This document shows, piece after piece, positions 41,201 to 64,000 of a stretch of DNA of 64,000 nt (position 1 is the first letter of the stretch; every line of letters begins with the position of its first letter). The notes below the pieces were generated by a model that worked only from the letters and a program-made list of their open reading frames with translations, ran no database searches and was not told the DNA's origin. This stretch comes from Eimeria praecox (lineage: Eukaryota): assembly GCA_963920595.1 (NCBI GenBank), contig OY986950.1, forward strand, positions 5,084,001-5,148,000. Direction: 5' to 3'. The position numbers and the translations under genes were made by a program.

Positions 41201-44200
41201 AGGACGACGCGATGAAAAGCCACCCGGTTCAAAGCCTGTCGCTGGGCGCCCCTAAGTCGTTTATGTTACAGTGCCTCCGTTCGTGCCAGCATAGAGTTTT
41301 GAATAGCGGTATGCACAGCACGCACACCTGATAAGGTAGCATTCAATGCGCCAAACTTCATGCTGGAGGCATGTTAAGCCTGAAGAGCAAGCACTTCGAG
41401 TTGCTGGGGAGAGAAAGCCTCATTTTGGCAAGTAGGATGCCAAACCAACTGACATGGAGTTCAGGCAATACACCCTGCGGGCGTTTGTTTAGCAGCGTGT
41501 ACGATGCCTCCCCTTTTATGCAGCATCAAAGACATTTAGGGGGCACCGTAAGCATTGTGGACGTGCGAGCATTCGGGCAGGCGCGAGCTGGCGCTGCTCA
41601 GATATCTCCGGCCTGGTGGGCGGCATGCCAAGCAAGCTGTGCACTCTAGGCGTGCCCATCTCTAAGCGCCCAATCGAAACACTGTATGCGCAGCTAAGTT
41701 TGTCCTGAGTTACGCTACCCCAACAGCGCTTCATTATGGCAGCATTCTCCAAAGCAAGTACGGGCCTATATCATGCCTGGGCGAGTTGAACTGGCCAGTC
41801 AGTTTACGCCGGTACTACACCAAGGTCCGCATTGAATATGCATAACTGTCTGTTCAACCACTGGAAAGACCAGTTGCGCCTACCGTAAACGCTTTTGGTT
41901 TGGGAGTATGATTTGCCTGGATTGGCAAGCGTCGGATTCTCCGAGTCCAGAGTGTACGCGCACATGCGCCTTTGTTGCATGAGGTGGTCCTCCATTGCCG
42001 AATACCCTGCGTTGCAGTTGCAGTCATCGAGGCTTGGGTGTTCGCCCCTGTGTGTAGGACCAGCGAAAACCGCAAAGACGTGCACGCCGTTGTGCGCTGA
42101 TCTGCTTGTGGGCGCGTTTGCGTCGCTCAACGTTTGGCTGTGGATTCCAGGGCTCGCGATGGGAATTGTGCTGACTTGAGCACGGCAGTAGATCTCACAG
42201 GGTAGCAGATTGAGCGCGTGCTATTCTAAATGAAGTTGCAGTGGAATTTGTAAGCCGTGTGCGCTACTGATAAGCGAGTGAGTGTCAGTATGCTGGCATC
42301 TGTGCATCACCAGGGCAGGTGCAGTGACGTGCACCCAACAGTAATTGCCATGCAGGTACCTTTTTCTTCGGCACACGCACTATTACCAGAGCTTCGCTAA
42401 AACCATGCACGTCTATCGGAAGCTGGAAGTCTGCACAGTAGGCTCGAGCTTCGTACCACTGTCCCTCGACAGAACACAGGATGGTCTAAACGCCGATTTA
42501 TTGGAAGGCCGTGATTGGGCAGTCACATGCTGACTTGCTGCAATTGCAGTGGTTCTAAAGCTTCTTAGAAAGGAGTGGAATGGGTTCCAGATGGTTCGCA
42601 TATGCTTGCAGGCGCTTTGGAAGCTTTGCAGTGGACATAGGACTAAATCTGCAGGATAGTGGAAGCCTTGAATACGTGCTTCGAGGATAGCATAGCTGCC
42701 GTTAGATGCCTCGTTTTGGCTTGTATGGATCGTAGAGTTGGGCTGTGGAATTGGCGATCGACACGATGAGTTGTCCTCAACCATTGTAGTTTTCAATGCT
42801 ACATTAGGCTGTGCATGAATCTCTAGAGATACCTAAGACGGAATTTAGTCCTGCAGAATGGACCACAGCAGGAAGCGCGCACTGCCGTTTCGATTGCTGG
42901 ACACGGTCAGCACGTTTAGAGGACACCAGGTGCTGCGTGGTGGATACGGTTCCAGCAGGGTAGTGGATTGCCTGCAAGGACGGCTGGCAGTATGGAAGCA
43001 CATGACCAACTTCAAACAGCGCCCGGCTTCCCTGAGAGTAGCGTTGGTCCTCTAGCAGTGCCAAAACGTCCCGCCCGTAAAGGAATTCAATGTGTAGATA
43101 GATGTGACCAATTTCTCGGTGCATGCTTGGCCGTTTCGGAGCTCCGTGTTCTGTAGCACCACTGCTTGGAAGTATTACGGCCTTTTGCTTTTCCCAGGCA
43201 CTTGGAACGTGCGACGCGTGTGCCGTTTTACCTGGGCACGGTTTGACTTCACGCAACGACCCGTCGCTGATAGCGGGCCATCCAACACGAGCTTCGTTTT
43301 GTGAATGGGCCGCTTTATTAGCAGTTCAAAAGCAGGGGTACTTGCTCAGCAGAAATCTTTGTGGACTGAGCCGCTTGACTGGAGGTTCAATGGGGTGGAT
43401 TTTCTTGCAACGATTGCACGCCAATGCAATGCATACGCCAGGTGGAGTTGGAGCACACCACAAACACGACAGGCCCGCAGTGAATGCACTGTTGCATCGC
43501 TCAGTTAATGTGAAGGCGAGCTTTGAGGTTTTCAGCGTGATGCGTCTGGAATGGCAAGCGTCGGATTGTTCGAGGCCAAAGCGCACAAGCACGTGTGCTC
43601 TTGAATCATGATACAGTCCACCGCTCTGCGTTGCAGCTGCGCCCGTTGAGAACTGGTATTCGCCTCCGTTTGTAGAACCAGTAGAAACCAAAGCGACGTC
43701 CACGCGAGTGTGCGGTAGTTTGCTTGGGGCGTGTTCGCGTTGCTCACCGAAACGCTGAGGATTCCAGGGCGCGTCATGGAAATTGTGCCGACTTGAGCAC
43801 GACGGTGGACCTTGCAGAAAAGCATTTGCAGCACATGCTATTTTGGGCAATGCTGCACTGGCATGGGATCCTGTGAAGCAGATTGTTGAGGCTTTGCGAC
43901 TATCTGTTTCGGGCAGATCAGGCCAGTGAGAAAAAACGCCTAGAATGCACCCTGTGTGGCGCAGCCTTGTCGCACGTTCGAGAGAGGTTTTGCATGTACG
44001 TTTAGAGGTCTGTCTGAGTGTGCAGGCTGTGACACTTGAACAGCGGCTACCAAGGCTCGATTGTTGGGAAGGCATAATGCATTTGAAACATGGTTGTGGC
44101 TTGCTTGTATGGATGCTTATTTCTGCACGCTTGTGCGTCTGCGCGTGCATGTGCATACACCCTTGTATAGATGAATCCGACAGTTCACGGAGGCCGTTAT

Positions 44201-47200
44201 CAACAGAAAGGAAAATCTACAGGCACAATGAGAAGGTGGCAGCCTCTCTAGCATGCGGACGGTTTTGTCATATTCACTTCCAGAGCGACCAGACTCTTCA
44301 CCACGAACTGGGCTTCCTGCAGGAATGCCAAGGCTCTCAGTGTGCAAATTGCTGCTTGCGTTGGGCGCAGAGAGTACGTTGGGTCGACGTGTATGCAGCA
44401 CCGCTGGTCGTGACAAAGCATTGTGCTCTCTTTTGAAGATTTAACAATTCTTAATCGCATCGACCACCGCATATGCTTCGATCTAACTGCTCCGCTAGTA
44501 CTGGAAAGAAGCAAATTGCGTGGTTGCGCAAAAACCAGCCTAGACCAATGCGCATAAACAACCACCACGAGATGTCTTTAGACGATTCACATTCAAAGGC
44601 AGATCAGTCCACAGCCAGTTATACGGTATATTGGATTGCTACTCCTTCCACCCCTTCAAGCTTACTCAACAAATGTCTGACGGCGAGTGCGCATATGCGT
44701 CATGTGCATGCGACGATAAATAGGAGGCCAAGAGGATCCGCTGCGGGGGAAGCCTTGCTGTTCATCTAACGTTTGTGGGACGCCAAACCATGGGGCGAAC
44801 GGTTTGCGCTCAACAGTCGGCTACACAATCGCAACAAAATGTGTAACGTTTAACGCACTGCTTCAGAGGCACGTGAAAGGCTGCGGTGAGAAAGGTTGCA
44901 GCCGTTAGTAGAGGGTGCCTTTGGCTTGAAGGGCTTATGCAATGTGCAGCAGACACACCTTGTTAGCTGTCTGCAAGGGAGACAGAGTCTAGCCGTCTTA
45001 TGAGGCAGATGCTGTGGCAGTGCCAACACTTACTGTACGCGTACAAGACGAGAGCTGGCGCACCCTCCCTCGGTGCCGCTACCAGCCAGCTTTAATATTG
45101 CTCAGGCTCTGCTGCACTGATGTTTCGTACGTTTTTGTGCATTGTAGGACTGTCAATTTGTTGATTGCAGCAGCTGTGGTTTCTCTAAAAATTGCAGGAG
45201 CTTGGGGTGACGCAGAAGCTTGCATGTGCTTGCCCCAGGACGACGCGATGAAAAGCCACCCGGTTCAAAGCCTGTCGCTGGGCGCCCCTAAGTCGTTTAT
45301 GTTACAGTGCCTCCGTTCGTGCCAGCATAGAGTTTTGAATAGCGGTATGCACAGCACGCACACCTGATAAGGTAGCATTCAATGCGCCAAACTTCATGCT
45401 GGAGGCATGTTAAGCCTGAAGAGCAAGCACTTCGAGTTGCTGGGGAGAGAAAGCCTCATTTTGGCAAGTAGGATGCCAAACCAACTGACATGGAGTTCAG
45501 GCAATACACCCTGCGGGCGTTTGTTTAGCAGCGTGTACGATGCCTCCCCTTTTATGCAGCATCAAAGACATTTAGGGGGCACCGTAAGCATTGTGGACGT
45601 GCGAGCATTCGGGCAGGCGCGAGCTGGCGCTGCTCAGATATCTCCGGCCTGGTGGGCGGCATGCCAAGCAAGCTGTGCACTCTAGGCGTGCCCATCTCTA
45701 AGCGCCCAATCGAAACACTGTATGCGCAGCTAAGTTTGTCCTGAGTTACGCTACCCCAACAGCGCTTCATTATGGCAGCATTTTCAATAGCCTGTGCGTG
45801 CCTTTATCAAGGCTGGGCGGGTTGAACTGGCCAGTCAGTTTACGCCGGTACTACACCAAGGTCCGCATTGAATATGCATAACTGTCTGTTCAACCACTGG
45901 AAAGACCAGTTGCGCCTACCGTAAACGCTTTTGGTTTTGGAGTATGATTTGCCTGGATTGGCAAGCGTCGGATTCTCCGAGTCCAGAGTGTACGCGCACA
46001 TGCGCCTTTGCTGCATGAGGTGGTCCTCCATTGCCGAATACCCTGCGTTGCAGTTGCAGTCATCGAGGCTTGGGTGTTCGCCCCTGTGTGTAGGACCAGC
46101 GAAAACCGCAAAGACGTGCACGCCGTTGTGCACTAGTCTGCTTGTGGGCGCGTTTGCGTCGCTCAACGTTTGGCTGTGGATTCCAGGGCTCGCGATGGGA
46201 ATTGTGCTGACTTGCGCACGGCAGTAGGCCTCGCAGAAAGGCATCTGCAACACAGCTATATTTTAGCTTCACTTGCGTTCACATAGGTTCCCTTGTTTGG
46301 AGTGTTGAAGGCGAGTAGTTGTTAGTGTTATACGTGCACGTAGAGCGTTATGGGGAGCAAATGGTGTCCAAGTCAGCCCTGTTGCATCTGCGCTTCTCTC
46401 CTTCGAAAGCCCGAGAAGCACGATGTGTGCATGCACGGTGTGCAGGCGTGTAGAAGGCTTTCTTTCTTCAATGAAGACTTTGCTTGGACGGCTCTGGCGC
46501 ACGACGGGGAGCCACGTGAAACGCGTAGTTGTGAACAACAGAGGAATTCTGTTGGCCTAACCGTTCGGCTCATGAGAGAGCACGAAGTTTGTGGGTAGTT
46601 TTACTGCACGGGGAAGCTGTAGTGGCAGTCCGTTCCCTTGTGCTCGAAGTCGTTTTGCATTATTTAGACAAGTAAGCAGGCAGGAAGCGCAACCGACCTA
46701 CTGATGTTCTGTACTATGTAGAAAAGGCAAACCTGAAGGCCGCCACAGTACGTGTGGTCGCTGACCATCGTTCAGGCTAAGACGTTGAGACAGGCGGCGC
46801 ATGGCATGCTTGTGTTCGAGACAGTCAGAGATGGGAATACAGAATTGCAGCACGACTTGCTAGGGACATCATTTCATAGTGGTAGAGAAGTAGCTGACGT
46901 GTCTACTAGTTCGTGAGCGCAGATGGAAAGCCTCTGCCTTGACTGAAACACATGCATTACAGTTGCAGCGCATAGCCAGGCAGGTCTCTACCTGTCATGC
47001 TTCTCAGCAGCGCTGAGCGCTGCTGAGAAGCATGACAGGCCTACCATGAGGTTGCACAGGCAGCGTAAGGGTGGTGTAGGTGTTGTGAGAAGATTGGACC
47101 CTGAGGGCGGCGCTCGCAAGCGCGTAGAGACGTGGACGTCGGCGCATTTGTTTTGGGGTACCGCAGCTGTGGTTAGCAAATTCTTTCTCCTTTGTGAGCG

Positions 47201-50200
47201 TGAGCGCAAACATTATCAAGGCAAGGATTCCATGTTTGCAAGGCACCAGAAGATCACCGGCTTCCGTACAGGAGGCTGTGCCAAACGTAATGCTTGCTTT
47301 GAAGGAGGGGATGGCTGAATATGAGGGTGGGTTGGGGGCCGTTCCATCATGAACCAGAATGCTGAGTTTTTGCGACTATCTGTTTCGGGCATATCAGATC
47401 AGGGCCAAACGGCTTCCTAGACTGCGCGTTGTGTGATGCAGTGTCTTGTCAAGTTGGAATGAGGTTATGCCTATATTTTTAGAGGTAGGTCTGAGTGTGC
47501 ATGCCTTGACACTTGAGCAGCGACTATGACGGCTCGTTTGTTTGGCTGGCAAGATGCATTCGAAGTGCCACGGTGAGTTGTTTGTTCGGTTGTATGCGGC
47601 GTTTGTCATTGGGTCTGCGTGGGTGTGTGCATGCATCCGTGTTTAGCTTAATCACATAGTTTAGGCACCTACCTACTACTGGCGAAAGGCACAGCGTGAG
47701 GATAAGGGCCTCTTTAGCATGTGGTCGGGCTTGCCGCATTGACGACCAGGGCAGCCTTTATCGTCCCTACGAAATTGGCTGCTTGCAAGGATGTGAAGAC
47801 TCCTGCTTGGCGTGTCCTTGCGTGAGGGCGGCACAGGGTGTACGATGGCTAGAGGCGTCTGCATCATCATTGGTCTATGGAAAGCACAACGTTCTGCTGT
47901 AGAACATTTCAGACTTAGCAGTCGTGCTGTGAACGTCATGCGCTGCGTGTTAGAAGCCATGCTTTGCTAGCAAAAGCGAGACCACAATGCTGCGTGGTTA
48001 GGTTGGAAAAGCGCATAGATGACAAAGCCGAAACAGCCAACCAGCATCAAATATTGTTATCTCTTGGCGATCCATGACCAGCGAGATGCAGGTCTAGAGC
48101 AAGCAGCATCGTGCATGGCCTTGCTACTACTCTGAGGTGATACATCGACTACGTTCCAGCGAGTGCGCTGATATGTGTTGCGTCTTTTGTGTGTCCAGCA
48201 TAAGGATGTCTAGGGGCTTAGTCGCCGGAAACGCGATGTTGTTTGTAGCGCTTTTGAGAGAACCGAACCCCGGATGCCTATAACGTACGCTGAGTGTTGC
48301 TCGCCACCACAGCAGTAAAAGGACTGGCGTTACAAGACGCCATGCTTCAGGCACACGTGAAAGTGCTGAATGAAGGAGGTTGAAGCTGGTGGTTGAGGGC
48401 GCCTGTACCTGGGAGGGCATGCGCAGACGCGTGTCAAACGCACGGCTCTGGCAGCCTCCATCGAAGCTGGAGTCCTCGAGGCGTGTGCGGTTGTTAACAT
48501 GGCAGTGGCAAAAGTATATCCTACAGTGGATGGCCGGTAGTAGAGCTGTTTTGCCTGGGTCTCGCTACGGGCGATGCTCGATATGGCCTTTTGTACCAGT
48601 TGAACGGATGCTTGGTAGGTTATTAATTGGTTGTAAGCAGGACGCCATCCTGGTGTTGCAGGTGCAGTTTGTCTACCTACGCTGCTGCATAAGCGTGATA
48701 TGAGGTGCACGTGTTATTGCCCGTTTCACCCAAGGTTAGAAGAGAAACCCAGGAGGGTAAAGGGCTGTTGCTAAGCGCCCTTAGCGGGGGTAAGCTGGAG
48801 AGCCTAGGTTCCTCTTTGCATAGAGATTTGCTTATCTGAAGGCGAAAGCGAAACGGGGCCAGATAGTAGAATGGCCTTCTAGCCGGCCTATTGCATGCTG
48901 GAGATGCGCGTGGCGCGCATGGCGAATAGTTAGTGTTGCTGGAGAGAGACGGCCTCTTTTTGGCAAGTAGGATGCCGAACCAACTGATATGGAGTTCAGG
49001 CAATACACCCTGCGGGCGTTTGGTTGGCAGAGTGTACGGTGCCTCGCCTTATACGCAGCATCACAGGCATTTAGGGGGCACCGTAAGCAGTTTGGAGGTG
49101 CAGGCATTCAGGCAGGCGCGAGCTGGCGCTGCTCAGATATCTCCGGCCTGGTGGGCGGCATGCCAAGCAAGCTGTGCACTCTAGGCGTGCCCATCTCTAA
49201 GCGCCCAATCGAAACACTGTATGCGCAGCTAAGTTTGTCCTGAGTTACGCTACCCCAACAGCGCTTCATTATGGCAGCATTCTCCAAAGCAAGTACGGGT
49301 CTATATCATGCCTGGGCGGGTTGAACTGGCCAGTCAGTTTACACCGGTACTACACCAAGGTCCGCATTGAATATGCATAACTGTCTGTTCAACCACTGGA
49401 AAGACCAGTTGCGCCTACCGTAAACGCTTTTGGTTTTGGAGTATGATTTGCCTGGATTGGCAAGCGTCGGATGCTCCGAGTCCAGAGTGTACGCGCACAT
49501 GCGCCTTTGTTGCATGAGGTGGTCCTCCATTGCCGAATACCCTGCGTTGCAGTTGCAGTCATCGAGGCTTGGGTGTTCGCCCCTGTGTGTAGGACCAGCG
49601 AAAACCGCAAAGACGTGCACGCCGTTGTGCACTAGTCTGCTTGTGGGCGCGTTTGCGTCGCTCAACGTTTGGCTGTGGATTCCAGGGCTCGCGATGGGAA
49701 TTGTGCTGACTTGCGCACGGCAGTAGGCCTCGCAGAAAGGCATCTGCAACACAGCTATATTTTAGCTTCACTTGCGTTCACATAGGTTCCCTTGTTTGGA
49801 GTGTTGAAGGCGAGTAGTTGTTAGTGTTATGCGTGCACGTAGAGCGTTATGGGGAGCAAATGGTGTCCAAGTCAGCCCTGTTGCATCTGCGCTTCTCTCC
49901 TTCGAAAGCCCGAGAAGCACGATGTGTGCATGCACGGTGTGCAGGCGTGTAGAAGGCTTTCTTTCTTCAATGAAGACTTTGCTTGGACGGCTCTGGCGCA
50001 CGACGGGGAGCCACGTGAAACGCGTAGTTGTGAACAACAGAGGAATTCTGTTGGCCTAACCGTTCGGCTCATGAGAGAGCACGAAGTTTGTGGGGAGTTT
50101 TACTGCACGGGGAAGCTGTTGTGGCAGTCCGTTCCCTTGTGCTCGAAGTCGTTTTGCATTATTTAGACAAGTAAGCAGGCAGGAAGCGCAACCGACCTAC

Positions 50201-53200
50201 TGACCTTAATAATGTTCTGTACTATGTAGAAAAGGCAAACCTGAGGGCCGCCACAGTACGTGTGGTCGCTGACCATCGTTCAGGCTATGGCGTTGACACA
50301 GGCGGCGCATGGCATGCTTGTGTTCGAGAGAGTCAGAGACAGGATTATAGAGCTTCAGAATGACTTGTTAGGGATTTCATTTATAGACGTACAAAGGTGT
50401 GTGGCTTGCCTACTAGTTAGTGCGTGCAGACGAGAAGCCTCTGCCTTGACTGAAACACATGCATTACAGTTGCAGCGCATAGCCAGGCAGGTCTCTACCT
50501 GTCATGCTTCTCAGCAGCGCTGAGCGCTGCTGAGAAGCATGACAGGCCTACCATGAGGTTGCACAGGCAGCGTAAGGGTGGTGTAGGTGTTGTGAGAAGA
50601 TTGGACCCTGAGGGCGGCGCTCGCAAGCGCGTAGAGACGTGGACGTCGGCGCATTTGTTTTGGGGTACCGCAGCTGTGGTTAGCAAATTCTTTCTCCTTT
50701 GTGAGCGTGAGCGCAAACATTATCAAGGCAAGGATTCCATGTTTGCAAGGCACCAGAAGATCACCGGCTTCCGTACAGGAGGCTGTGCCAAACGTAATGC
50801 TTGCTTTGAAGGAGGGGATGGCTGAATATGAGGGTGGGTTGGGGGCCGTTCCATCATGAACCAGAATGCTGAGTTTTTGCGACTATCTGTTTCGGGCATA
50901 TCAGATCAGGGCCAAACGGCTTCCTAGACTGCGCGTTGTGTGATGCAGTGTCTTGTCAAGTTGGAATGAGGTTATGCCTATATTTTTAGAGGTAGGTCTG
51001 AGTGTGCATGCCTTGACACTTGAGCAGCGACTATGCCGGCTCGTTTGTTTGGCTAGCAAGTTTCATTTGAAGTGCCACGGTGAGTTGTTTGTTCGGTTGT
51101 CTGCGGCTTTGTTGATGGGTCTGTGCGTGTATGCGTGTATGGCTGAATCATACAGTTCAGGCAGGCGGTTATTAACGGCAAAACGCACAGTGTGAGGATA
51201 AGGGCCTCTTTAGCATGTGGTCGGGTTTGCCGCATTGGCTGGCAGGTCAGCCAGGTTCTTTACTGAGCAATCGACAGCTCAAAAGATTGCAAATCCGTGC
51301 TTTGTGCCAGTTACTGCGTGTGTGTGGGCCAGACAGTACGATGAATAGAGGGGTGTGCACCCTCAATGATATTGACAAAGCACTATGGCCGGCCGCAAAT
51401 TTTGGAGATTTCGTACTCGCCTCGTGGGGGCCATTCGAAGCGTCTTTGCATGCAAGCCACGCGGGTGATACTTGGGAGCACCAAAGTGCGTGTTTGCATT
51501 CAGCAGAGCTTAGCGAACGCCGTCACGACACCTAGGCAGCACCTACCGTTGTTATCCTTAGGCGACGCACAACCAGAGATTCATTTGCAGCAAGGAACAT
51601 CGTGCTTTGCATTGATAGTCCCCGCTACGTTCCAGGAAGTGCGATGCTATATCCTGCATTTGCATCCAGACGAAAAACGCATAGGTTCTTGGGCGCCTGA
51701 GACGCGATATTAATTGCGGAATTCTCTGGCGAGACCAAACCAGAAGGCCCATAAGGTACGCTGAGTGTTGCTCGCCACCATTGCAATAAAAGGACTGACG
51801 TTGCAAGACACCGTGCTTCAGAGGTACGTGAAAGTGCTGAATGATAGAGGTTGTAGCTGATGGTTGAGGGCGCCTTTACCTTGGAGGACATGCGCGGTTG
51901 TGTGGGGGAAGCAGGCCAATGGCAGTGCGCAACGAATTTGCAGCCTTGGCGGAGTATGGGGTAGCTGGTGAAGGCGTCAATACAATACAATCATACGACA
52001 GTGGAAGGCCGGCTGTGGAGCTGTTTTGCATGCCTCTGGCTAAGGGCCACGCTCGATGTGGCTTTTTGTGCCGGATGAACTGACGCTTGGTAGATTATTA
52101 ATTGGCTGTAAGCATGGCGCCATGCTGGTGTTGCAGGTGTGGTTTGTCTACCTACGCTGCTGCATAAGCGTGGAATGATCTGCGCGTGCTAACGCGCTTT
52201 CCGCCGAGCAGCAGGGCATAATGGCACCGCGAGGCACTCCGGAGAGAGCATATCCGTTATATGTGTATAGCGTTTTGAATAGCAGATAGCAAACACAAGT
52301 AAAAGATCAACGGTGGAGTAGATTTCTCTGCGGCATGTTGGATGCAAGGGATACACTAGTGTGGCGCGGAGGGGCGAAACCGATATATTGGAGAGAGCAG
52401 GCCCTTTTGTGGGACGTAGAGAGTCGAAGGATCTGACATTAGGTACACACCCTACAAGGGCCACGATTTTCTGGAGCAGAGCGTACGATGCGTCGTCATG
52501 TATGCAGCATCGTTGTCCAGTTCAAGGCATCCACCTCAGCAGAGACGCTGGAGAGTCAATCTCTATCATGCCCATACTAACCCATGCGTTGCATTCGAAC
52601 GTTAGTATAGGTAGCTTTGAAGCGCAGCGTGATGCGTGTGGAAGTTGAATATAGGTTATGGAATCGTGTTTGGACAGGCGGTGCATGCCATGCTTGTTTT
52701 CGGGTGTTGCCGGCATAGGATTGTACAGCATGCGCTACTCGGGCCGTTCCATGCGCAGCGCCAAAGTAGCTAGCTTGCCTGCTAGCTAGTCTGCGCCGAC
52801 AAAGCGCATCCGTCTTCAGCATAGCTAATGCCTTACTGTTGCACGTAATAAGCCAGTGCTGCTTCTTCTTTAGGTCTATCTGTGTGGCGAACAACGGCAG
52901 GCGTGGTGTACCGTGAGGTTCAGCATGCTGCATAAGGGTGCTTTAGGTGTTGTGAGGAGATTCGACCCTGCAGGCGGCGCTGGCAAGGGCCCGCAGACGT
53001 GGACGTCGGTGCATTTGTTTTGGGGTACCGCAGCTGTGGCTATCAAGTTTTTTCTCCTTTGTGAGCGTGAGCGCAAACATTATCACGGCAAGTATGCCAT
53101 GTTTGCGAGGCACGAGAAGATCACGGGTGCCCGTAGGGTGTCCGTAGAGTAGGCTGTGCCAAACGTATTGCTTGCTTTGAAGGAGGGGATGGCTGAATAT

Positions 53201-56200
53201 GAGAGTGGGGTGTAGGCAATTCTGTCATGAAGCAGGATGCTGAGGTTTTGCGACTATCGGTTTCGGGAATACGAGATCAGGGCAAAACAGCTTCCTAGAC
53301 TGCGCGTTGTGTGATGCAGTGTCTTGTCAAGTTGGAATGAGGTTATGCCTATTTTTTTAGAGGTAGGTCTGAGTGTGCATGCCTTGATACTTGAGCAGCG
53401 ACTATGACGCTCGTTTGTTTGGCTAGCCAGATGCATTTGAAGTGCCACGGTGAGTTGCTTGTTCGGTTGTATGAGACGTTTGTTGATGGGTCTGTGTGTG
53501 GGCGTGCATGTATCCGTTATACCTCAGTCGCACAGTTTAGGCAGGCGGTTATTATTAGGAAAAGGCACAGTGTGAAGACAGCGGCCTCTCTGGCATGTGG
53601 TCGAGTTTGCCGCATTGGCTGGCAGGTCAGCCAGGTTCTTCACTAAGCAATGGACAGCTCAGAAGATTGTAAATCCGCGCCGTATGCAAATGATTGGCTG
53701 CGTGTGTGTCGCAGAGAGTACGATGGCTAGAGGCGTGTGCACCCTCAATGATATTGACAAAGCATTATGGCTTGGCGTAAATTGCGGTGATTTCGTACTC
53801 ACCTCGTGGGAGCCATTCGAAGCATCTTAGCATGCGTGCTACACGGGTGATACTTGGGAGTGCCAAAATGCGTGTTTGCATTCAGCAGAGCTTAGCGAAT
53901 ACCGTCACGACATCTAGGCAGCACCTACCGTTGTCTTCTGCCGGCGACTCATAATCAACCAGAGAATTGTTTGCAGCAAGGAACATCGTGCTTTGCATTG
54001 ATAGTCGCTTTAGGCGACGCGTCGACTACGTTCCAGGAAGTGCGATGCTATATCCTGCATTTGCATCCAGAGGAAAAACGCATAGGTTCTTGGGTGCCGG
54101 AGACGCGATATAAATTGCGGCATTCTCTGGCGAGACCAAACCAGAACGCCCATAAGGTACGCTGAGTGTTGCTCGCCACCATTGCAATAAAAGGACTGAC
54201 GTTGCAAGACACCGTGCTTCAGAGGTACGTGAAAGTGCTGAATGATAGAGGTTGTAGCTGATGGTTGAGGGCGCCTTTACCTTGGAGGACATGCGCGGTT
54301 GTGTGGGGGAAGCAGGCCAATGGCAGTGCGCAACGAATTTGCAGCCTTGGCGGAGTATGGGGTAGCTGGTGAAGGCGTCAATACAATACAATCATACGAC
54401 AGTGGAAGGCCGGTTGTGGAGCTGTTTTGCATGCCTCTGGCTAAGGGCCACGCTCGATGTGGCTTTTTGTGCCGGATGAACTGACGCTTGGTAGATTATT
54501 AATTGGCTGTAAGCATGGCGCCATGCTGGTGTTGCAGGTGTGGTTTGTCTACCTACGCTGCTGCATAAGCGTGGAATGATCTGCGCGTGCTAACGCGCTT
54601 TCCGCCGAGCAGCAGGGCATAATGGCACCGCGAGGCACTCCGGAGAGAGCATATCCGTTATATGTGTATAGCGTTTTGAATAGCAGATAGCAAACACAAG
54701 TAAAAGATCAACGGTGGAGTAGATTTCTCTGCGGCATGTTGGATGCAAGGGATACACTAGTGTGGCGCGGAGGGGCGAAACCGATATATTGGAGAGAGCA
54801 GGCCCTTTTGTGGGACGTAGAGAGTCGAAGGATCTGACATTAGGTACACACCCTACAAGGGCCACGATTTTCTGGAGCAGAGCGTACGATGCGTCGTCAT
54901 GTATGCAGCATCGTTGTCCAGTTCAAGGCATCCACCTCAGCAGAGACGCTGGAGAGTCAATCTCTATCATGCCCATACTAACCCATGCGTTGCATTCGAA
55001 CGTTAGTATAGGTAGCTTTGAAGCGCAGCGTGATGCGTGTGGAAGTTGAATATAGGTTATGGAATCGTGTTTGGACAGGCGGTGCATGCCATGCTTGTTT
55101 TCGGGTGTTTCCGGCAATAGCGGTGTACTGGTATAGCATATCGGTGGCGGGGACGTGATTTATACAGTGCCAAAATAGCTATTTTGTTTACTAGATAGTG
55201 CGTGCAGACCAGAGGCATGCGCCTGGACTAGAACAGATGCCTTGTACTAAGTGCCGGAAGCAAGTGATGCTTGGGCTCTTCCTTTAGCGCTGCTGGGAGC
55301 GCTGATCTGTGTACGGTGAGGTTGCGTATGCTGGGTCATGGGGTGTTAGGGTTTCTTGTGAGAGTGGACCCTGCAGAGGGTGTTGGCAACTGCGTGCAAA
55401 CGTCCACGTCAGGGCGTTTGGTTTTAGGGCACGGCAGCGGTCGTTAACGAGCTTTTTCTCCTTTGTGAGCGTGAGCGCAAACATTATCAAGGCAAGGATT
55501 CCATGTTTGCAGGCCTCCAGAAGATCGCCGGTGTCCGTAGAGTAGGCTGCGCCAAACGTATTGTTTGATTTGAAGGAGAGGATGGCTGAATATGAGGGTG
55601 GGGTGCAGACCGTTCCGTCATGAAGCAGGATGTTGAGGTTTTGCAACTATGTGTTTCGGACATATCAGATCAGGGCGAAACGGCTTCCTAGAATGCGCTT
55701 TGTGTGATGCAGTGTCTTGTCAAGTTGGAATGAGGTTATGCCTCTATTTTTATAGGTAGGTCTGAGTTTGCATTTCGTGACACTTGAGCAGCTGCTATGA
55801 CGGCTCGTTTGTTTGGCTGGCAAGATGCATTTGAACTGCCACGGTGAGTTGTTTGTTCGGTTGTATGCGACGTTTGTTGATGGGTCTGTGTGTGCGTGTG
55901 CATGTATCCGTGTATAGATCAGTCACACAGTTCAGGCAGGCAGTTATTAACGGCAAAAGGCACAGCGTGAGGATAAGGGCCTCTCTGGCATGTGGTCGGG
56001 TTTGCCGCATTGACTGGCAGGACAGCCAGGCCCTTTGCTAGGCAATGAGCAGCTCAGAATATTGTAAAGCCAAGGCCTGTGCTCCCCTGTAGATTTGGCT
56101 CACTTCGTAGTCGCATCAGGGGCGTCATTCCACGCGTTTTAGGACACACGGTACGGTACTGATACTGAGGAGCAGCAAAATGCGTGCTTGCATCCAGCTG

Positions 56201-59200
56201 TGTGTAGGCGACACCGTCAAAGCATGGAGGCATAACAAAAAGGTGTTGTCGTTAGGCAATTCGCGAACAACCAGAAATTATCTTAAAGCCACTAATGCAC
56301 TGCGCTGGTTTCTCACTCTTCTGATGCGCCACATCGACTACGTTTCAGGCAGTGCGCAGACACCTCCGAGGCTGTTTCCAGACGAACGATGTCAAGGTTC
56401 TTGGGCGCGGGAGACGCGATATTAATTGCGGCATTCTCTGGCGAGACCAAGCCAGAAGGCCCATAAGGTACGCTGAGTGTTGCTCGCCACCATTGCAATA
56501 AAAGGACTGACATTACAAGACACCGTGCTTCAGAGGTACGTGAAAGTGCTGAATGATAGAGGTTGCAGCTGATGGTTGAGGGCGCCTTTACCTTGGAGGA
56601 CATTCTCGGTTGTGTGGGGGAAGCAGGCCAGTGGCAGTGCGCAACGAATTTGCAGCCTTGGCGGAGTATGGGGTAGTTGGTGAAAGCGTCAATACAGTAC
56701 GGGCATACGACAGTGGACGGCCCGTAGTGGAGCTGTTTTGCATGCCTCTGGCTAAGGGCCACGCTCGATGTGGCTTTTTGTGCCGGATAAACTGACGCTT
56801 GGTAGATTATTAATTGGCTGTAAGCATGGCGCCATGCTGGTTTTGCAGGTGTGGTTTGTCTACCTACGCTGCTGCATAAGCGTGGAATGATCTGCGCGTG
56901 CTAACGCGCTTTCCGCCGAGCAGCAGGGCATAATGGCACCGCGAGGCACTGATGGAAAAGCATATCCGTTATGTGTGTATAGCGTTTTGAATAGCAGATA
57001 GCAAACACAAGTAAAAGATCAACGGTGGAGTAGATTTCTCTGCGGCATGTTGGATGCAAGGGATACAGTAGTGTGGCGCGGAGGGGCGAAACCGATATAT
57101 TGGAGAGAGCAGGCCCTTTTGTGGGACGTAGAGAGTCGAAGGATCTGACATTAGGTACACACCCTACAAGGGCCACGATTGTCTGGAGCAGAGCGTACGA
57201 TGCGTCGTCATGTATGCAGCATCGTTGTCCAGTTCAAGGCATCCAACTCAGCAGAGACGCTGGAGAGTCAATCTCTATCATGCCCATACTAACCCATGCG
57301 TTGCATTCGAACTTTAGTATAGGTAGCTTTGAAGCGCAGCGTGATGCGTGTGGAAGTTGAATATAGGTTGTGGAATCGTGTTTGGACAGGCGGTGCATGC
57401 CATGCTTGTTTTCGGGTGTTGCCGGCATAGGATTGTACAGCATGCGCTACTCGGGCCGTTCCATGCGCAGCGCCAAAGTAGCTAGCTTGCCTGCTAGCTA
57501 GTCTGCGCCGACAAAGCGCATCCGTCTTCAGCATAGCTAATGCCTTACTGTTGCACGTAATAAGCCAGTGCTGCTTCTTCTTTAGGTCTATCTGTGTGGC
57601 GAACAACGGCAGGCGTGGTGTACCGTGAGGTTCAGCATGCTGCATAAGGGTGCTTTAGGTGTTGTGAGGAGATTCGACCCTGCAGGCGGCGCTGGCAAGG
57701 GCCCGCAGACGTGGACGTCGGTGCATTTGTTTTGGGGTACCGCAGCTGTGGCTATCAAGGTTTTTCTCCTTTGTGAGCGTGAGCGCAAACATTATCACGG
57801 CAAGTATGCCATGTTTGCGAGGCACGAGAAGATCACGGGTGCCCGTAGGGTGTCCGTAGAGTAGGCTGTGCCAAACGTATTGTTTGCTTTGAAGGAGGGG
57901 ATGGCTGAATATGAGAGTGGGGTGTAGGCAATTCTGTCATGAAGCAGGATGCTGAGGTTTTGCGACTATCGGTTTCGGGAATACGAGATCAGGGCAAAAC
58001 AGCTTCCTAGACTGCGCGTTGTGTGATGCAGTGTCTTGTCAAGTTGGAATGAGGTTATGCCTATTTTTTTAGAGGTAGGTCTGAGTGTGCATGCCTTGAT
58101 ACTTGAGCAGCGACTATGACGGCTCGTTTGTTTGGCTAGCCAGATGCATTTGAAGCGCCATGGTGAGTTGTTTGTTCGGTTGTATGAGACGTTTGTTGAT
58201 GGGTCTGTGTGTGGGCGTGCATGTATCCTTGTATAGCTCAATTACGCAGTTCAGGCAGGTGGTTGTAAATCGCAAAAGGCACAGTGTGAAGACAGCGGCC
58301 TGTCTGGCATGTGGTCGAGTTTGCCGCATTGGCTGGCAGGTCAGCCAGGTTCTTCACTAAGCAATGGACAGCTCAGAAGATTGTAAATCCGCGCCGTATG
58401 CAAATGATTGGCTGCGTGTGTGGCGTAGACAGTACGATGGCTAGAGGCGTGCTCAACCTCATTGATATTGACAAAGCATTATGGTTTGCCGTAAATTGTG
58501 GTGATTTCGTATTCGCCTCGTTAGGCCCATCCGAAGCGTCCTAGGAGGCAAGCTTCGCGGGCGTTATTCGGGAGCACTAAAGTGCGTATTTGCATTCAGC
58601 AGAGCCTAATGGACACCTTCACAACACGCAGGAATCACTAAACGGTGTTAACATTGGGCGATTCACGATCAAACAAAAACTAGGTTACAGCCAGGAACGC
58701 AGTTCACCGCATTGGTACTGCCGTTACGCAGCAAATTGACTGCGTTCCAGCGAGTGAGCAGGCACATCCTACCGCTGCTTCGGGACGGACGACGTCATGT
58801 ATGACAAGGGCCTTTCTGCCGGTTGAACTGATGTTTGGAAGATTATTAATTGGCTGTAAGCATGGCGCCATGCTGGTTTTGCAGGTGTGGTTTGTCTACC
58901 TACGCTGCTGCATAAGCGTGGAATGATCTGCGCGTGCTAACGCGCTTTCCGCCGAGCAGCAGGGCATAATGGCACCGCGAGGCACTGATGGAAAAGCATA
59001 TCCGTTATGTGTGTATAGCGTTTTGAATAGCAGATAGCAAACACAAGTAAAAGATCAACGGTGGAGTAGATTTCTCTGCGGCATGTTGGATGCAAGGGAT
59101 ACAGTAGTGTGGCGCGGAGGGGCGAAACCGATATATTGAAGAGAGCAGGCCCTTTTGTGGGACGTAGAGAGTCGAAGGATCTGACATTAGGTACACACCC

Positions 59201-62200
59201 TACAAGGGCCACGATTGTCTGGAGCAGAGCGTACGATGCGTCGTCATGTATGCAGCATCGTTGTCCAGTTCAAGGCATCCAACTCAGCAGAGACGCTGGA
59301 GAGTCAATCTCTATCATGCCCATACTAACCCATGCGTTGCATTCGAACGTTAGTATAGGTAGCTTTGAAGCGCAGCGTGATGCGTGTGGAAGTTGAATAT
59401 AGGTTGTGGAATCGTGTTTGGACAGGCGGTGCATGCCATGCTTGTTTTCGGGTGTTGCCGGCATAGGATTGTACAGCATGCGCTACTCGGGCCGTTCCAT
59501 GCGCAGCGCCAAAGTAGCTAGCTTGCCTGCTAGCTAGTCTGCGCCGACAAAGCGCATCCGTCTTCAGCATAGCTAATGCCTGACTGTTGCACGTAATAAG
59601 CCAGTGCTGCTTCTTTTTTAGGTCTATCTGTGTGGCGAACAACGGCAGGCGTGGTGTACCGTGAGGTTCAGCATGCTGCGTAAGGGTGCTTTAGGTGTTG
59701 TGAGGAGATTCGACCCTGCAGGCGGCGCTGGCAAGGGCCCGCAGACGTGGACGTCGGTGCATTTGTTTTGGGGTAACGCAGCTGTGGCTATCAAGTTTTT
59801 TCTCCTTTGTGAGCGTGAGCGCAAACATTATCACGGCAAGTATGCCATGTTTGCGAGGCACGAGAAGATCACGGGTGTCCGTAGGGTGTCCGTAGAGTAG
59901 GCTGTGCCAAACGTATTGTTTGCTTTGAAGGAGGGGATGGCTGAATATGAGAGTGGGGTGTAGGCAATTCTGTCATGAAGCAGGATGCTGAGATTTTGCG
60001 ACTGTCGGTTTCGGGAATACGAGATCAGGGCAAAACAGCTTCCTAGACTGCGCGTTGTGTGATGCAGTGTCTTGTCAAGTTGGAATGAGGTTATGCCTAT
60101 TTTTTTAGAGGTAGGTCTGAGTGTGCATGCCTTGATACTTGAGCAGCGACTATGACGGCTCGTTTGTTTGGCTGGCAAGATGCATTTGAAGCGCCATGGT
60201 GAGTTGTTTGTTCGGTTGTATGAGACGTTTGTCATTGGGTCTGTGTGTGGGCGTGCATGTATCCTTGTATAGCTCAATTACGCAGTTCAGGCAGGTGGTT
60301 GTAAATCGCAAAAGGCACAGTGTGAAGACAGCGGCCTGTCTGGCATGTGGTCGAGTTTGCCGCATTGGCTGGCAGGCCAGCCAGGTTCTTCACTAAGCAA
60401 TGGATAGCACAGAAGATTGTAAATCCGCGCCGTATGCAAATGATTGGCTGCGTGTGTGTCGCAGAGAGTACGATGGCTAGAGGCGTGCTCAACCTCATTC
60501 GTGTTTGCAGAGATCTGTTCTGCTGTAAAAGATTTCAGACTTTGCAGCCGCATCGCGGACATCATGCGATGCGTGTTAGGATGTATGCTACGCTGCCAGT
60601 ATTGGGGAGGACAATGTTTCATGCATGCGTTGAAGAGGGTCCAAACAAATGGTTCTAGACACCCACCACGAGATGGTGTTACCTTTAGGCGATCCATGAC
60701 CAGCGAGATGCAGGCTTAGAGAGAGCAGCATCGTGCATTGCCCTGCTACTACTCTGAGGCGATACATCGACTACGTTCCAGCGAGTGCGCTGATATGTGC
60801 TGCGTCTTTTGTGTGTCCAGCATAAGGATGTCTAGGGGCTTAGTCGCCGGAAACGCGATGTTGTTTGTAGCGCTTTTGAGAGAACAGAACCCAGGAGGCC
60901 TATAACGTACGGTGAGTGTTGCTCGCCACCACAGCAGTAAAAGGACTGGCGTTACAAGACGCCATGCTTCAGGCACACGTGAAAGTGCTGAATGAAGGAG
61001 GTTGAAGCTGGTGGTTGAGGGCGCCTGTACCTGGGAGGGCATGCGCAAACGCGTGTCAAACGCACGGCTCTGGCAGCCTTCATCGAAGCTGGAGTCCTCG
61101 AGGCGTGTGCGGTTAACATGGCAGTGGCAAAAGTATATCCTACAGTGGATGGCCGGTAGTAGAGCTGTTTTGCCTGGGTCTCGCTACGGGCGATGCTCGA
61201 TATGGCCTTTTGTATCAGTTGAACGGATGCTTGGTAGGTTATTAATTGGTTGTAAGCATGGCGCCATGCTGGTGTTGCAGGTGCGGTTTGCCTACCTTCG
61301 CTGCTGCATAAGCGTGGAATGATCTGCGCGTGCTAACGCGCTTTGCGCCGAGCAGCATGGCATAACGGCACCGCGAGGCACTCATGGAAGACCATATCGG
61401 TTAGGTGTATATAGCGTTTTGAATAGCAGATGGAGAACACAAGGGAATCATCAACGGCGAGGTAGATATATCTGTGGCGTGGTGAGTGCAAGGGATACAG
61501 TAGTAGGGCGCGGGGGGGCCAAACAGATATATTGGGGAGATCAGGGCCCCTTGTGGGACGTATAGCGCCGAATGGGCTGATGTGAGGTTCACACCCTACA
61601 AGGGCCACGATTTTCTGGAGCAGAGTGTACGTGGCGTCGCCTTGAATTTAGTAGCGTTGTCCAGTTCAAGATATCGAACAGAGCATCCTTCGCTACTATG
61701 ACCACACTAGTAAATGCGTTGCATTCGAATGTTAGCATAGGTAGCTTTGAAGGGCAGCGTGATGCGTGTGGAAGTTGAATATAGGTTATGGGATCGTGTT
61801 TGGAGAGGTGGCTCATGCCATGTCTGTTCTGAAGAGAAGCCGGGAATAGGGTTGTAACGTTGCAGCATGCGTAGCTAGGAACGTCATTTATACAGGGGTA
61901 GAGTTGCTACCTTGCCTGCTAGTTTGTGCGTGCCGATCAGAAGCCTCTGCCCCCACTAGAACGCATGCCTTATAGTCGCAGGGCATAGGCTGATGGCGGT
62001 TTTGCTTTTCGTATCCTGCTGCTGAGAACGCCAGCAGGTATACAGTAATCGTGTGTCTGCTGCATAATGGTGTTTTAGGTGTAGTGAGCACATTGGACCT
62101 TGCATGCGGTATTGGCAAGCGCGTGCAAACGTCGACGTCAGCGCATTTGATTTGGGGTACCGCAGGTGTGGCTCGCAAGTTCTTTCAAGTTCTTTCTCCT

Positions 62201-63294
62201 TTGTGAGCGTGAGCGCAAACGTTATCAAGGCAAGGATTCCATGTTTGCGAGGAACGCGGAGATCACCGGTGTACGTAGAGTAGGCTGTGCCAAACGTCAT
62301 GCTTGCTTTGAAGGAGCGGAAGGCTGAATATGAGGGTGGGGTGCAGACCGTTCCGTCATGAAGCAGGATGTTGAAATTTTGCGACTACCTGCTTCGGACA
62401 TATCAGATCAGGGCGAAGCGGCTTCCTAGCTTGCGCGTTGTCTGTTCGAGCCTCTTGTCAAGTTGGAGTGAGGTTATGCCTCTATTTTTATAGGTAGGTC
62501 TGAGTGTGCAAGTCGTGACACTTGAGCAGCTGGTATGACGGCTCGTTTGTTTGGCTGGCAAGATGCATTTGAACTGCCACGGTGAGTTGTTTGTTCGGTT
62601 GTATGAGACGTTTATTAATGATTCTGTGTGTGCGTGAGCATGCATCCGTGTATACGTCGATCACACAGTTCAGGCAGCCGGTTATTAATAGCAAAAGGCA
62701 CAGTGTGAGGATAACGGCCTATCTGGCATGTGGTCGGATTTTGCCGCATTGACCGGCATAGCGGCGATTATCGTCTCTACGTAATTAGGTGCTTGCAAGG
62801 ATGTGAAATCTCCTGCTTGGCGTGTCCTTACGTGAGCGTGGTACAGGGTGTACGATGGCTAGAGACGTCTGCATCATCATTGGTCTATGGAGAGCACTAT
62901 GTTCTGCTGTAGAGCATCTCAAGGTTCGCAGGCGTGGTGTGAACGTCATGCGCTGCGTGTTAGAAGGCATGCTTTCCTCACAAAAGGGAGAGCGCAATGC
63001 CTCCCGTTCAGGTTGACAAAGGGCTTGGGCGACAAAGTAGAAACAGCCAGCTAGCACCAAACATAGCTCTCTCTTGGCGCTCCATGACGCACCAGATGCA
63101 GGTCTAGAGCAAGAAGCATCGTGCATTGCCTTGCTACTACTCTTAGGCGACACATCGGCTACGTTTCAGCGAGTGCTCTGATATGTACTGCGTCGTTTGT
63201 GTGTCCAGAAGAAGGATATATAGGGGCTTAGGAGCGGGAAACGCGAGGTTGCTTGTAGCGCTTTTGAGAGAACAGAACCCAGGAGGCCTATAAC
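39..63294 (+). CDS. Putative giant micro-exon gene (internal portion), made of ~130 candidate 3-nt single-codon exons plus a few 12-nt exons; predicted Ala/Glu/Arg/Gln/Lys-rich helical or coiled-coil-like protein
   Basis: Recurrent (C/T/A)AG-NNN-GT(A/G)NG on the + strand, e.g. tcagGAAgtacgc 10039, tcagGCAgtaagc 21063 and 22971, tcagGCGgtaagc 27678. About 79 sites lie in the non-repetitive 8.3-38.5 kb, against roughly 7-11 expected if bases were uniform (about 1 per 2.7-4.1 kb). No stop codons were noted among the triplets and 51 of 79 encode Ala or Glu. Gene ends are not visible, and more than one gene is possible. Confidence 0.75.
9069..18200 (+). CDS. Run of 18 candidate 3-nt micro-exons reading AEREALEAERAQEVKAQL
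   Basis: First base of each: GCT 9069, GAA 10039, CGA 10761, GAG 11385, GCT 11933, CTT 12609, GAA 14048, GCA 14858, GAA 15198, CGA 15922, GCA 16058, CAA 16666, GAA 16829, GTT 16891 (very short upstream intron, doubtful), AAA 17259, GCC 17413, CAA 18014, TTA 18198. Each is flanked by AG and GT(A/G)NG. Spacing is wider and less regular here, so a few may be chance hits. Confidence 0.6.
19348..24022 (+). CDS. Dense run of 19 candidate 3-nt micro-exons reading ATVEAAAAAAAAEEAAKRA
   Basis: GCA 19348, ACA 19532, GTT 19806, GAA 20061, GCG 20350, GCT 20644, GCA 20879, GCA 21063, GCT 21213, GCA 21472, GCT 21743, GCA 22113, GAA 22415, GAA 22687, GCA 22971, GCT 23160, AAA 23439, AGA 23720, GCA 24020. 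Implied introns are 147-367 nt. Only 1-2 such sites are expected by chance in 4.7 kb. Confidence 0.82.
24217..26512 (+). CDS. Sparse candidate micro-exons (P, E, A, A)
   Basis: CCA 24217 (cag/gtgcgc), GAA 24798 (cag/gtgagc), GCG 26044 (cag/gtacgc), GCG 26510 (cag/gtgaga). The gaps contain weaker or decayed-looking sites, such as tgcatcagGGTgtcatg at 25351. Confidence 0.5.
27678..38472 (+). CDS. Run of 38 candidate 3-nt micro-exons reading AAAREARKAAEAAAQTPIREALTYQLAAAAQEAVAEEE
   Basis: First bases: 27678, 27969, 28260, 28526, 28790, 28886, 29171, 29424, 29535, 30203, 30463, 30570, 30822, 31073, 31357, 31480, 31584, 31867, 32103, 32338, 32806, 33085, 33297, 33531, 33774, 34105, 34344, 34662, 34870, 35394, 35890, 36191, 36492, 36783, 37380, 37551, 37805, 38470. 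All match AG-NNN-GT(A/G)NG and most are 200-330 bp apart. Confidence 0.75.
35870..37620. repeat. Old diverged duplication: ~35870-35955 resembles ~37530-37615, each centred on a micro-exon candidate
   Basis: ggtacagCAAgtgtgtagcaaagtgtcgcggctgctcagcactgagc vs ggtacagGAAgtgtgtggcaaagcggtgtggctggtcagcactgcgc; offset 1661. Confidence 0.7.
38990..39128. repeat. ~140-bp segment also present at ~40523-40661 and ~44559-44697; marks the left edge and a rearrangement junction of the array
   Basis: tctttagacgattcacattcaaagg...ctgacggcgagtgcgcatatg occurs three times. After 39128 the sequence jumps to the block matching 43166. Confidence 0.9.
39130..46226. repeat. Direct repeat of ~3.06 kb (39130-42190 and 43166-46226, offset 4036) separated by ~1 kb of different sequence
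   Basis: Identical ORFs at +4036 (39290/43326, 39909/43945, 40978/45014). The copies are near-identical apart from a divergent patch at 41745-41780 vs 45781-45816. Confidence 0.95.
40335..63294 (+). CDS. Candidate micro-exons at homologous positions of the ~2.0-2.4-kb repeat units
   Basis: Site a: CGT 41496/45532, AGT 49031, AGC 52480/54881/57192/59228, AGT 61624. Site b: TTC 46910, TTA 50417, CTA 52786, ATA 55195, CTA 57498/59534, TTT 61923. Site c: AGA 40335/44371, GGT 47837, ACA 51333, AGA 53715, ACA 58429, AGA 60465, GGT 62847. Site d: CGA 48160, GAA 51636/54037, GCA 56349, CGA 58751/60782/63170. 12-nt site e: 51744, 54145, 56456, 60895, 63283. Others: CAA 41755, CCT 45791, CAA 49290, AGT 41951/45987/49486, CGA 42275. 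Confidence 0.65.
45436..51237. repeat. Direct repeat of ~2.3 kb (~45436-47740 and ~48935-51237, offset 3499-3507)
   Basis: ORF pairs 45840/49339, 46269/49768, 46988/50495 and 47046/50553, plus direct sequence identity with diverged ends. Confidence 0.92.
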
Positions 63295-64000
63295 GTACGC
63301 TGAGTGTTGTTGGCCGCCACAGCAGTAAAAGGACTGGCGTTATAAGACGCCGTGCTTCAGGCACACGTGAAAGTGCTGAATGAAGGAGGTTGAAGCTGGT
63401 GGTTGAGGGCGCCTGTACCTGGGAGGGCATGCGCAGACGCGTGTCAAACGCACGGCTCTGGCAGCCTTCATCGAAGCTGGAGTCCTCGAGGCGTGTGCGG
63501 TTGTTAACATGGCAGTGGCAAAAGTATATCCTACAGTGGATGGCCGGTAGTAGAGCTGTTTTGCCTGGGTCTGGCTACGGGCGATGTTCGATATGGCCTT
63601 TTGTATCAGCTGAATGGATGCTTGGTACGTTATTAATTGGTTGTAAGCATGACGCCATGCTGGTGTTGCAGGTGCGGTTTGTCTACCTACGCTGGTGCAT
63701 AAGCGTGGAATGATCTGCGCGTGCTAACGCGCTTTGTGCCGAACAACAATGCATAATTGCACCGCGTTGCGCTCTGGGAAGCGCATATCCGATAGGTGCG
63801 TAAAGCGTTTTGAATAGCAGATGGCGAACGCAAGGAAACGATCAACAGTGAAGGTGATTTCTCTGCGGCGTGTTGAATGCACGGGATACTGTAGTGGGGC
63901 GCGGAAGGGCGAAACCGATATATTGGAGAGAGCAGGCCCCCTTGTGGGACGGAGGGTGTGGAGCGTGAACGAGCGAACTGACGATATTTTCACACGCTGC

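Follow-up and report, generated by a model that had tools for sequence, protein, structure and literature searches.

The DNA examined here is a 64,000-nucleotide window of the Eimeria praecox genome (assembly GCA_963920595.1, contig OY986950.1, positions 5,084,001 to 5,148,000 of the forward strand). Along its + strand lies a series of AG-NNN-GT sites, in which a splice acceptor and a splice donor enclose a single triplet. The sites form a non-repetitive chain in the middle of the window, with duplicated sequence to the left and a tandem array of seven units to the right (Table 1). The original prediction singled out one triplet position in the array, referred to here as the flagged slot, as a micro-exon whose residue changes only among Phe, Leu and Ile. 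We think it probable that about 110–120 of these triplets, the flagged one included, belong as one-codon exons to one window-spanning gene on the + strand, whose mRNA would encode a largely α-helical protein.

The spacing between acceptor and donor was scanned by counting [CT]AG-N(k)-GT[AG][ACG]G for k = 0–39 on both strands. Over the whole window there was a sharp single peak at k = 3, with 115 sites on the + strand and 4 on the - strand, while other spacings gave 6–25. In the non-repetitive region from 8.3 to 39 kb the k = 3 count was 70 on the + strand versus 3 on the - strand (2–14 at other k). Cross-validated weight matrices, trained on one half of this region and used to scan the other, identified 37 and 41 k = 3 sites versus 1–7 at other spacings. 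Over the whole window the weight matrix found 128 k = 3 sites on the + strand and 5 on the - strand, with 9–21 at other k, and for this reason about 110–120 of the sites are considered real. The sites are regularly spaced. Only 1/47 gaps between them was shorter than 90 nt, compared with 11.1 expected, and the median of 271 nt is intron-like. Outside the k = 3 pairs, donors and acceptors scoring at least 8 were in no excess on the + strand (20 versus 21 and 17 versus 22 on the - strand, respectively), which leaves little room for other exons between 8.3 and 39 kb.

Acceptors between 8300 and 39000 lack a pyrimidine tract. They show T at -8 (46/70), G at -7, A at -5 and a purine at -16 (57/70). 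No YTRAY branch point consensus was found, and only a mild GTGA/GGTG excess is present at -70 to -20. The splice signals are reminiscent of coccidians or green algae.

Table 1. Candidate one-codon exons and repeated sequence in the 64-kb window.
Feature	Position	Strand	Remarks
Tandem duplication, 3991 bp, 99.7% alike	1..8294	+	Six candidate one-codon exons per unit: 39, 872, 1715, 2351, 2670, 3208; runs past left end
Chain of 85 candidate one-codon exons, mutually unrelated introns	8572..38472	+	Densest at 19.3–35.8 kb: 60 sites, introns mostly 200–300 nt
Older diverged unit copies	39127..46236	+	4036-bp near-exact duplication (99.2%); few intact slots: 39554, 41496, 41951, 42275 and duplicates
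Array of seven mosaic units (2.0–3.5 kb)	45436..64000	+	Mostly four intact 3-nt slots per unit; runs past right window end
Ser/Arg slot	45532, 49031, 52480, 54881, 57192, 59228, 61624	+	Array
Gly/Thr/Arg slot	47837, 51333, 53715, 58429, 60465, 62847	+	Array; missing in unit 4
Arg/Glu/Ala slot	48160, 51636, 54037, 56349, 58751, 60782, 63170	+	Array
Flagged slot, unit 1, candidate one-codon exon TTC (Phe)	46910..46912	+	Splice score 8.8
Flagged slot, unit 2, TTA (Leu)	50417..50419	+	Splice score 8.2
Flagged slot, unit 3, CTA (Leu)	52786..52788	+	Weak acceptor and donor, likely skipped; score -1.1
Flagged slot, unit 4, ATA (Ile)	55195..55197	+	Strongest copy; score 12.0
Flagged slot, unit 5, CTA	57498..57500	+	Near-identical duplicate of unit 3 (2 mismatches/500 bases); score -1.1
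Flagged slot, unit 6, CTA	59534..59536	+	Near-identical duplicate (5 mismatches/500 bases); score -1.1
Flagged slot, unit 7, TTT (Phe)	61923..61925	+	Score 6.8

The chain comprises 86 candidates, from which 22090 was removed since it lies 20 nt from a stronger one. The remaining 85 triplets have a codon-like make-up. Read in frame they give 34 Ala (40%), 14 Glu, 8 Arg, 5 Leu, 5 Gln, 4 Lys and 4 Thr, and no stops, whereas the other two frames contain 3 and 7 stops over the 84 junctions. Gly, Pro, Asp, Asn, Ser and stop together make up 4/85 triplets, whereas 16.7–17.2 are expected from trinucleotide-aware nulls (p = 5–7e-5) and 19.9 on permuting positions; this class of helix breakers was picked post hoc, after the composition had been seen. 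In the unfitted set obtained with the regular expression the class accounts for 3/70 triplets versus about 13 expected. The introns of the chain have no detectable kinship, the best local score among the 62 introns of at most 350 nt being 34 versus 29 for shuffled sequence. Between 27577 and 31584, short introns (93–120 nt) recur every 3–5 exons among introns of 250–290 nt. These may be the trace of an ancient block duplication, though the introns no longer align.

At the flagged slot, direct inspection of the sequence confirmed seven sites, each with CTAG upstream and GT downstream, and five codons with a central T. Self-comparison and an alignment of the seven units place the sites in one homologous column. 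The three CTA copies (units 3, 5 and 6) are near-identical, with mutual differences of only 2–5 bases in 500, so the slot was counted as five independent types and not seven. The five types are 53–75% identical within 35 bases of the site.

At the flagged slot, 7/7 units have an intact AG and GT. In the island around it 13/21 columns are invariant, compared with 26/103 in the flanks (Fisher p = 0.0016). The same test gave p = 0.044 for the Gly/Thr/Arg slot and p = 0.010 for the Arg/Glu/Ala slot; the value for the Ser slot (p = 0.55) is uninformative because that slot sits in a homogenised block. Within divergent blocks, AG-N(k)-GT sites found in one unit were kept in all units in 3/24 cases for k = 3 and in 2/173 cases for k = 0–2 and 4–9. 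The flagged slot looks like a selected splice site. It has a conserved splice island and shares its signal class with the 128 + strand sites, and the original reading of it as a micro-exon is likely to be correct.

The strength of the individual copies was scored with splice matrices trained on the unique region, using 184 - strand sites as a chance set. A score of 6.8 is reached by 2.7% of the chance sites and a score of -1.1 by 30%. By comparison with the unique and chance sites, four types look usable but weak, and CTA looks like noise. The donor pentamer of the CTA type is found in 0/61 sites with a strong acceptor. We infer, as the original prediction suggested, that the CTA copies are probably skipped, and consider this suggestion well founded given their chance-like summed score.

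The original prediction went further and proposed constraint at the protein level, such as one core residue per repeat. The slot would then be a constitutive exon under purifying selection that supplies one hydrophobic core residue to each repeat. Such a hydrophobic constraint is possible, but we find it doubtful. In its favor, the middle T is present in 5/5 types within a conserved splice island, and the codons can be linked by a minimal path of four changes, two of them synonymous and two conservative. The combination of five distinct triplets and an unchanged middle base recurs in only 1/68 flanking triplets, which is the narrowest version of the comparison and was defined post hoc. However, the restriction to Phe, Leu and Ile amounts to one invariant base. 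Among the five types 21/67 flanking columns and 15/39 near columns are invariant, a background of 31–38%, and the probability that at least four changes in the triplet miss the middle base is about (2/3)^4 = 0.20. Minimum changes per codon position over six array slots are 6/5/6, making the middle base as mobile as the others, and it changes freely in the sister slots Gly/Thr/Arg and Arg/Glu/Ala. If CTA, with its chance-like score, is in fact left out of the mRNA, the question rests on four types only.

A set of Phe, Leu and Ile is what a hydrophobic position would show, and chance explains it equally well. The pattern is compatible with constraint but too weak to demonstrate it, and is minor on its own. 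Thus the 3-nt exon and the skipping of CTA copies both stand as likely, while the claim of protein-level constraint at this slot is unsupported. Selection at the protein level has its real support in the 85 candidates at 8.3–39 kb, which lie outside the flagged finding. The flagged hydrophobic slot by itself carries little weight.

Intact slots within an array unit are 300–930 nt apart. Divergence between units peaks close to the intact slots (Spearman -0.70, rank 2/50 circular shifts), and pairwise identity between units switches blockwise. This pattern suggests that older cassettes carrying exons are reshuffled by recombination within homogenised intron blocks. Blocks of one-codon exons would be repeated by the duplications at 1–8294 and 39127–46236. 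In the older copies at 39127–43163 there are 4 k = 3 sites versus 0–2 at other k, not clearly above chance. The output of TRF was one 24-bp dimer.

Several further features of the units were observed. Of the acceptors conserved in the array, the strongest has a mean score of 11.8 and is located at 48351, 51822, 54223, 56534, 60973 and 63361, with a strong orphan donor 66 alignment columns upstream. By eye, all three frames close within ~40 bases of this acceptor in units 1 and 2. It may belong to a last exon or to an exon of 2 or 6 nt. An extra GCG slot with a weak donor is present in units 3–6 (52678, 55079, 57390 and 59426). In its homologs in units 1, 2 and 7 (46794, 50302 and 61808) GC replaces GT, and by eye the slot aligns with strong AGT sites at 41951, 45987 and 49486. 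It looks like an exon decaying in some copies. Unit 5 (58794–58813) lacks ~370 bases of the second conserved block, including a strong donor and acceptor, with no intact 3-nt slot lost. A perfect inverted repeat with 24-base arms and a 1-base loop occurs only in units 1 and 2 (46991–47039 and 50498–50546), ~80 bases 3' of the flagged slot, and would fold as a strong pre-mRNA hairpin.

Other contents of the conserved blocks were considered. Longer exons are unsupported: there is no consistent open frame or synonymous excess, and units 4 and 7 carry frameshifting indels. A tandem array of structured RNA genes was rejected. The Rfam search of the conserved blocks returned 4 rows at E 0.62, far under the cut-off and all representing one perfect hairpin in two copies, and the tRNA search returned 0. 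Among the contiguous frames scanned with Pfam (22 of 111), 0/22 reached the cut-off, NACHT and ankyrin included.

Contigs from sequencing runs were also compared with the window. The stretch was present in only one sample, represented by two runs (X1 and X2) that behave as DNA; no run recorded as RNA contained it, which has no bearing on expression. Over 91 bases round 61923, contigs from these runs gave no new triplet at the TTT site; only contigs at least 80% alike could be placed there, and the types are 53–75% alike. Contig depth at the TTT site hints at more TTT-type copies, though depth is not a copy number. Relative to unit 2 the contigs show paralog differences, none of them at the flagged slot among the 40 of 328 entries listed. 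An exact 24-mer of the units had 0 matches in the metagenome contigs. A consensus exon motif had 14 matches, none with a k = 3 excess (0–3 sites each), and these are attributed to chance since that excess is missing.

A number of results weigh against reading the window as one gene of in-phase codons. Inclusion of the triplets, their phase and their membership in one transcript are predicted from sequence, and neither a start, a stop nor an ordinary exon could be identified in the window. Within the chain, zero in-frame stops is not a significant deficit when the base make-up of each position is kept (0.6 expected, P = 0.49). Helical periodicity is borderline for charge (p = 0.05–0.07) and absent for hydropathy (p = 0.25), the test for synonymous third bases gave no significant result (p = 0.23 and 0.46), and the post hoc choice of the helix-breaker class belongs here as well. 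In the array, the triplets are rich in Ser and Arg, whereas Ala and Glu prevail in the chain. The flagged slot scores low, at -1.1 to 12.0 compared with a unique-region median of 15.6. It is also atypical, with T as first base in 3/5 types versus 2/85 triplets elsewhere. Strong donors lacking AG at -5 number 10 in unit 3 and 16 in unit 7, versus 2.9 per kb in the unique region. With these extra orphan donors, longer or decayed phase-shifting exons are possible in the array and the flagged triplet may be read in another phase. When the flagged slot is joined directly to the next intact slot, the +1 frame is closed right after it in 5/7 units, a point in favor of the gene; the +2 frame has only one stop across the array.

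Part of this evidence could also be explained if the chain at 8.3–39 kb were a real one-codon-exon gene and the array at 39–64 kb a decaying, untranslated duplicate of part of it, so that AG/GT conservation would reflect past selection. The array is less dense than the chain (1.3 versus 3.6 sites per kb) and its scores are lower. Several homologous slots lack AG or GT in some units, the residue make-up differs, and the conserved blocks have no coding signal. We nevertheless consider decay of the whole array unlikely. At four slots every aligned unit retains both AG and GT, and three of these slots lie in blocks where just 25–39% of the flanking columns are invariant. Among 31 array triplets there are 0 stops. 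Low density is not peculiar to the array, as 8.3–19.3 kb and 1–4 kb are similarly sparse.

It is far less probable that the AG-NNN-GT islands represent some motif dispersed through the DNA or RNA, or else mark recursive splice points within a single, very long intron, with the triplets absent from mature mRNA. The exon reading is sequence-based and the branch-point motif is not clear. The triplets of the chain also have A as third base in 54/85 cases and G as first base in 52/85, in a region of 50% GC, and therefore nucleotide-level constraints act on them. The usual exon-end consensus is AG, from which this bias differs. Recursive ratchet points, however, are zero-length AG/GT sites, and between 8.3 and 39 kb k = 0 was unenriched (4 sites on the + strand versus 3 on the - strand) while k = 3 was strongly so; they were rejected on these counts. 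Moreover, when an acceptor is used and the next donor lies three bases further along, the triplet stays in the RNA. The strand bias is strict, and triplet content deviates from base-level nulls along amino-acid classes. An origin of the array units in assembly errors or collapsed copies, with unreal slot variation, is scarcely credible: near-exact duplications (99.2–99.7%) do occur elsewhere in the window and the DNA is known from a single sample, but the 53–75% likeness of the types round the slot is far past sequencing error, deep X1 and X2 contigs match pieces of units 2 and 7 with 0–3 differences, and the main chain is non-repetitive.

If the window does hold one gene of one-codon exons, splicing would have to proceed intron by intron. 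A 3-nt exon cannot be defined across or spanned by the spliceosome, so each intron of 90–1000 nt would be defined and removed in turn and the message would gain one codon per step. The triplets would be read in phase 0. A missed site would remove one residue and keep the frame, so weak copies such as the CTA type would be tolerable and a helical rod of variable length would result. Unequal crossover or conversion within the homogenised intron blocks of the array would shuffle diverged cassettes, each varying one residue. On balance, though with less assurance than for the gene itself, we lean towards a helical segment of more than 110 residues built with one exon per amino acid (~0.6% of a locus of more than 64 kb coding). 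It would require more than 100 one-codon splicing steps, and the recombining array together with in-frame skipping would vary its length and sequence residue by residue.

The closest known systems are the truffle (Tuber) nank genes, which have tens of codon-sized, alternatively spliced mini-exons (cited in PMC4986451, PMC13449251). As described there, many exactly one-codon exons occur in one gene, each can be skipped in frame, and a role in diversification has been proposed; 3-nt exons with canonical splice signals are common to both systems. The locus differs in scale, with 110–120 sites over at least 64 kb versus tens of mini-exons. The 22 contiguous frames scanned gave no NACHT, ankyrin or other Pfam match at the cut-off, and the gene runs off both window ends. 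The 85 exons of the chain lie between introns that lack detectable mutual likeness, the predicted product is Ala/Glu/Arg-rich, and the exons are predicted here from their sequence signal (115 vs 4; 128 vs 5). The locus may work like nank genes; membership in the nank family is not claimed.

Schistosome micro-exon genes (MEGs) have 10–20 exons of 3/6–81 bp, mostly 15 bp, and a signal peptide (10.1101/2023.06.21.545858). Both systems would have mostly tiny exons of 3n length between much longer introns, rapid amino-acid change and variation by skipping. Here the exons are uniformly 3 nt, their number is about six times higher, and the window shows no signal-peptide exon. A MEG of the schistosome kind was rejected, as only k = 3 is enriched among k = 0–39 and there are more than 100 sites versus 10–20 mixed exons.

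The mechanism assumed above is taken from work on the single-nucleotide exon of Arabidopsis, in which isolated exons of 1–9 nt are spliced by intron definition in two steps (PMC4674806). The flanking introns are removed successively, as would occur here. The exon described there is a lone one between ordinary exons, whereas the present locus has a chain of dozens. Hypervariable codons are found in Podospora repeats. Fungal NLR genes contain diversified repeats with high internal conservation and repeat exchange (PMC13449251). Tandem units homogenised by recombination in which few codon positions stay variable are common to both. Those fungal repeats are coding sequence, whereas at the present locus the homogenised part looks intronic and each variable codon would be its own exon. 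A chain of one-codon exons this long was not found in literature searches that covered listings and the opening parts of abstracts.

The locus would be an extreme case of the codon-sized exon arrays already in print. If spliced as predicted, it would have the longest consecutive run of one-codon exons found described, compared with nank genes (tens) and MEGs (10–20, mixed). It makes the handling of back-to-back 3-nt exons by the spliceosome testable, including the order of removal and the rate of skipping. Genes of this kind escape open reading frame finders, and also spliced aligners because no exon in a read is of sufficient length to anchor it. They can be detected with a simple scan of AG-N(k)-GT spacing, and apparently empty regions of similar genomes may hide more.

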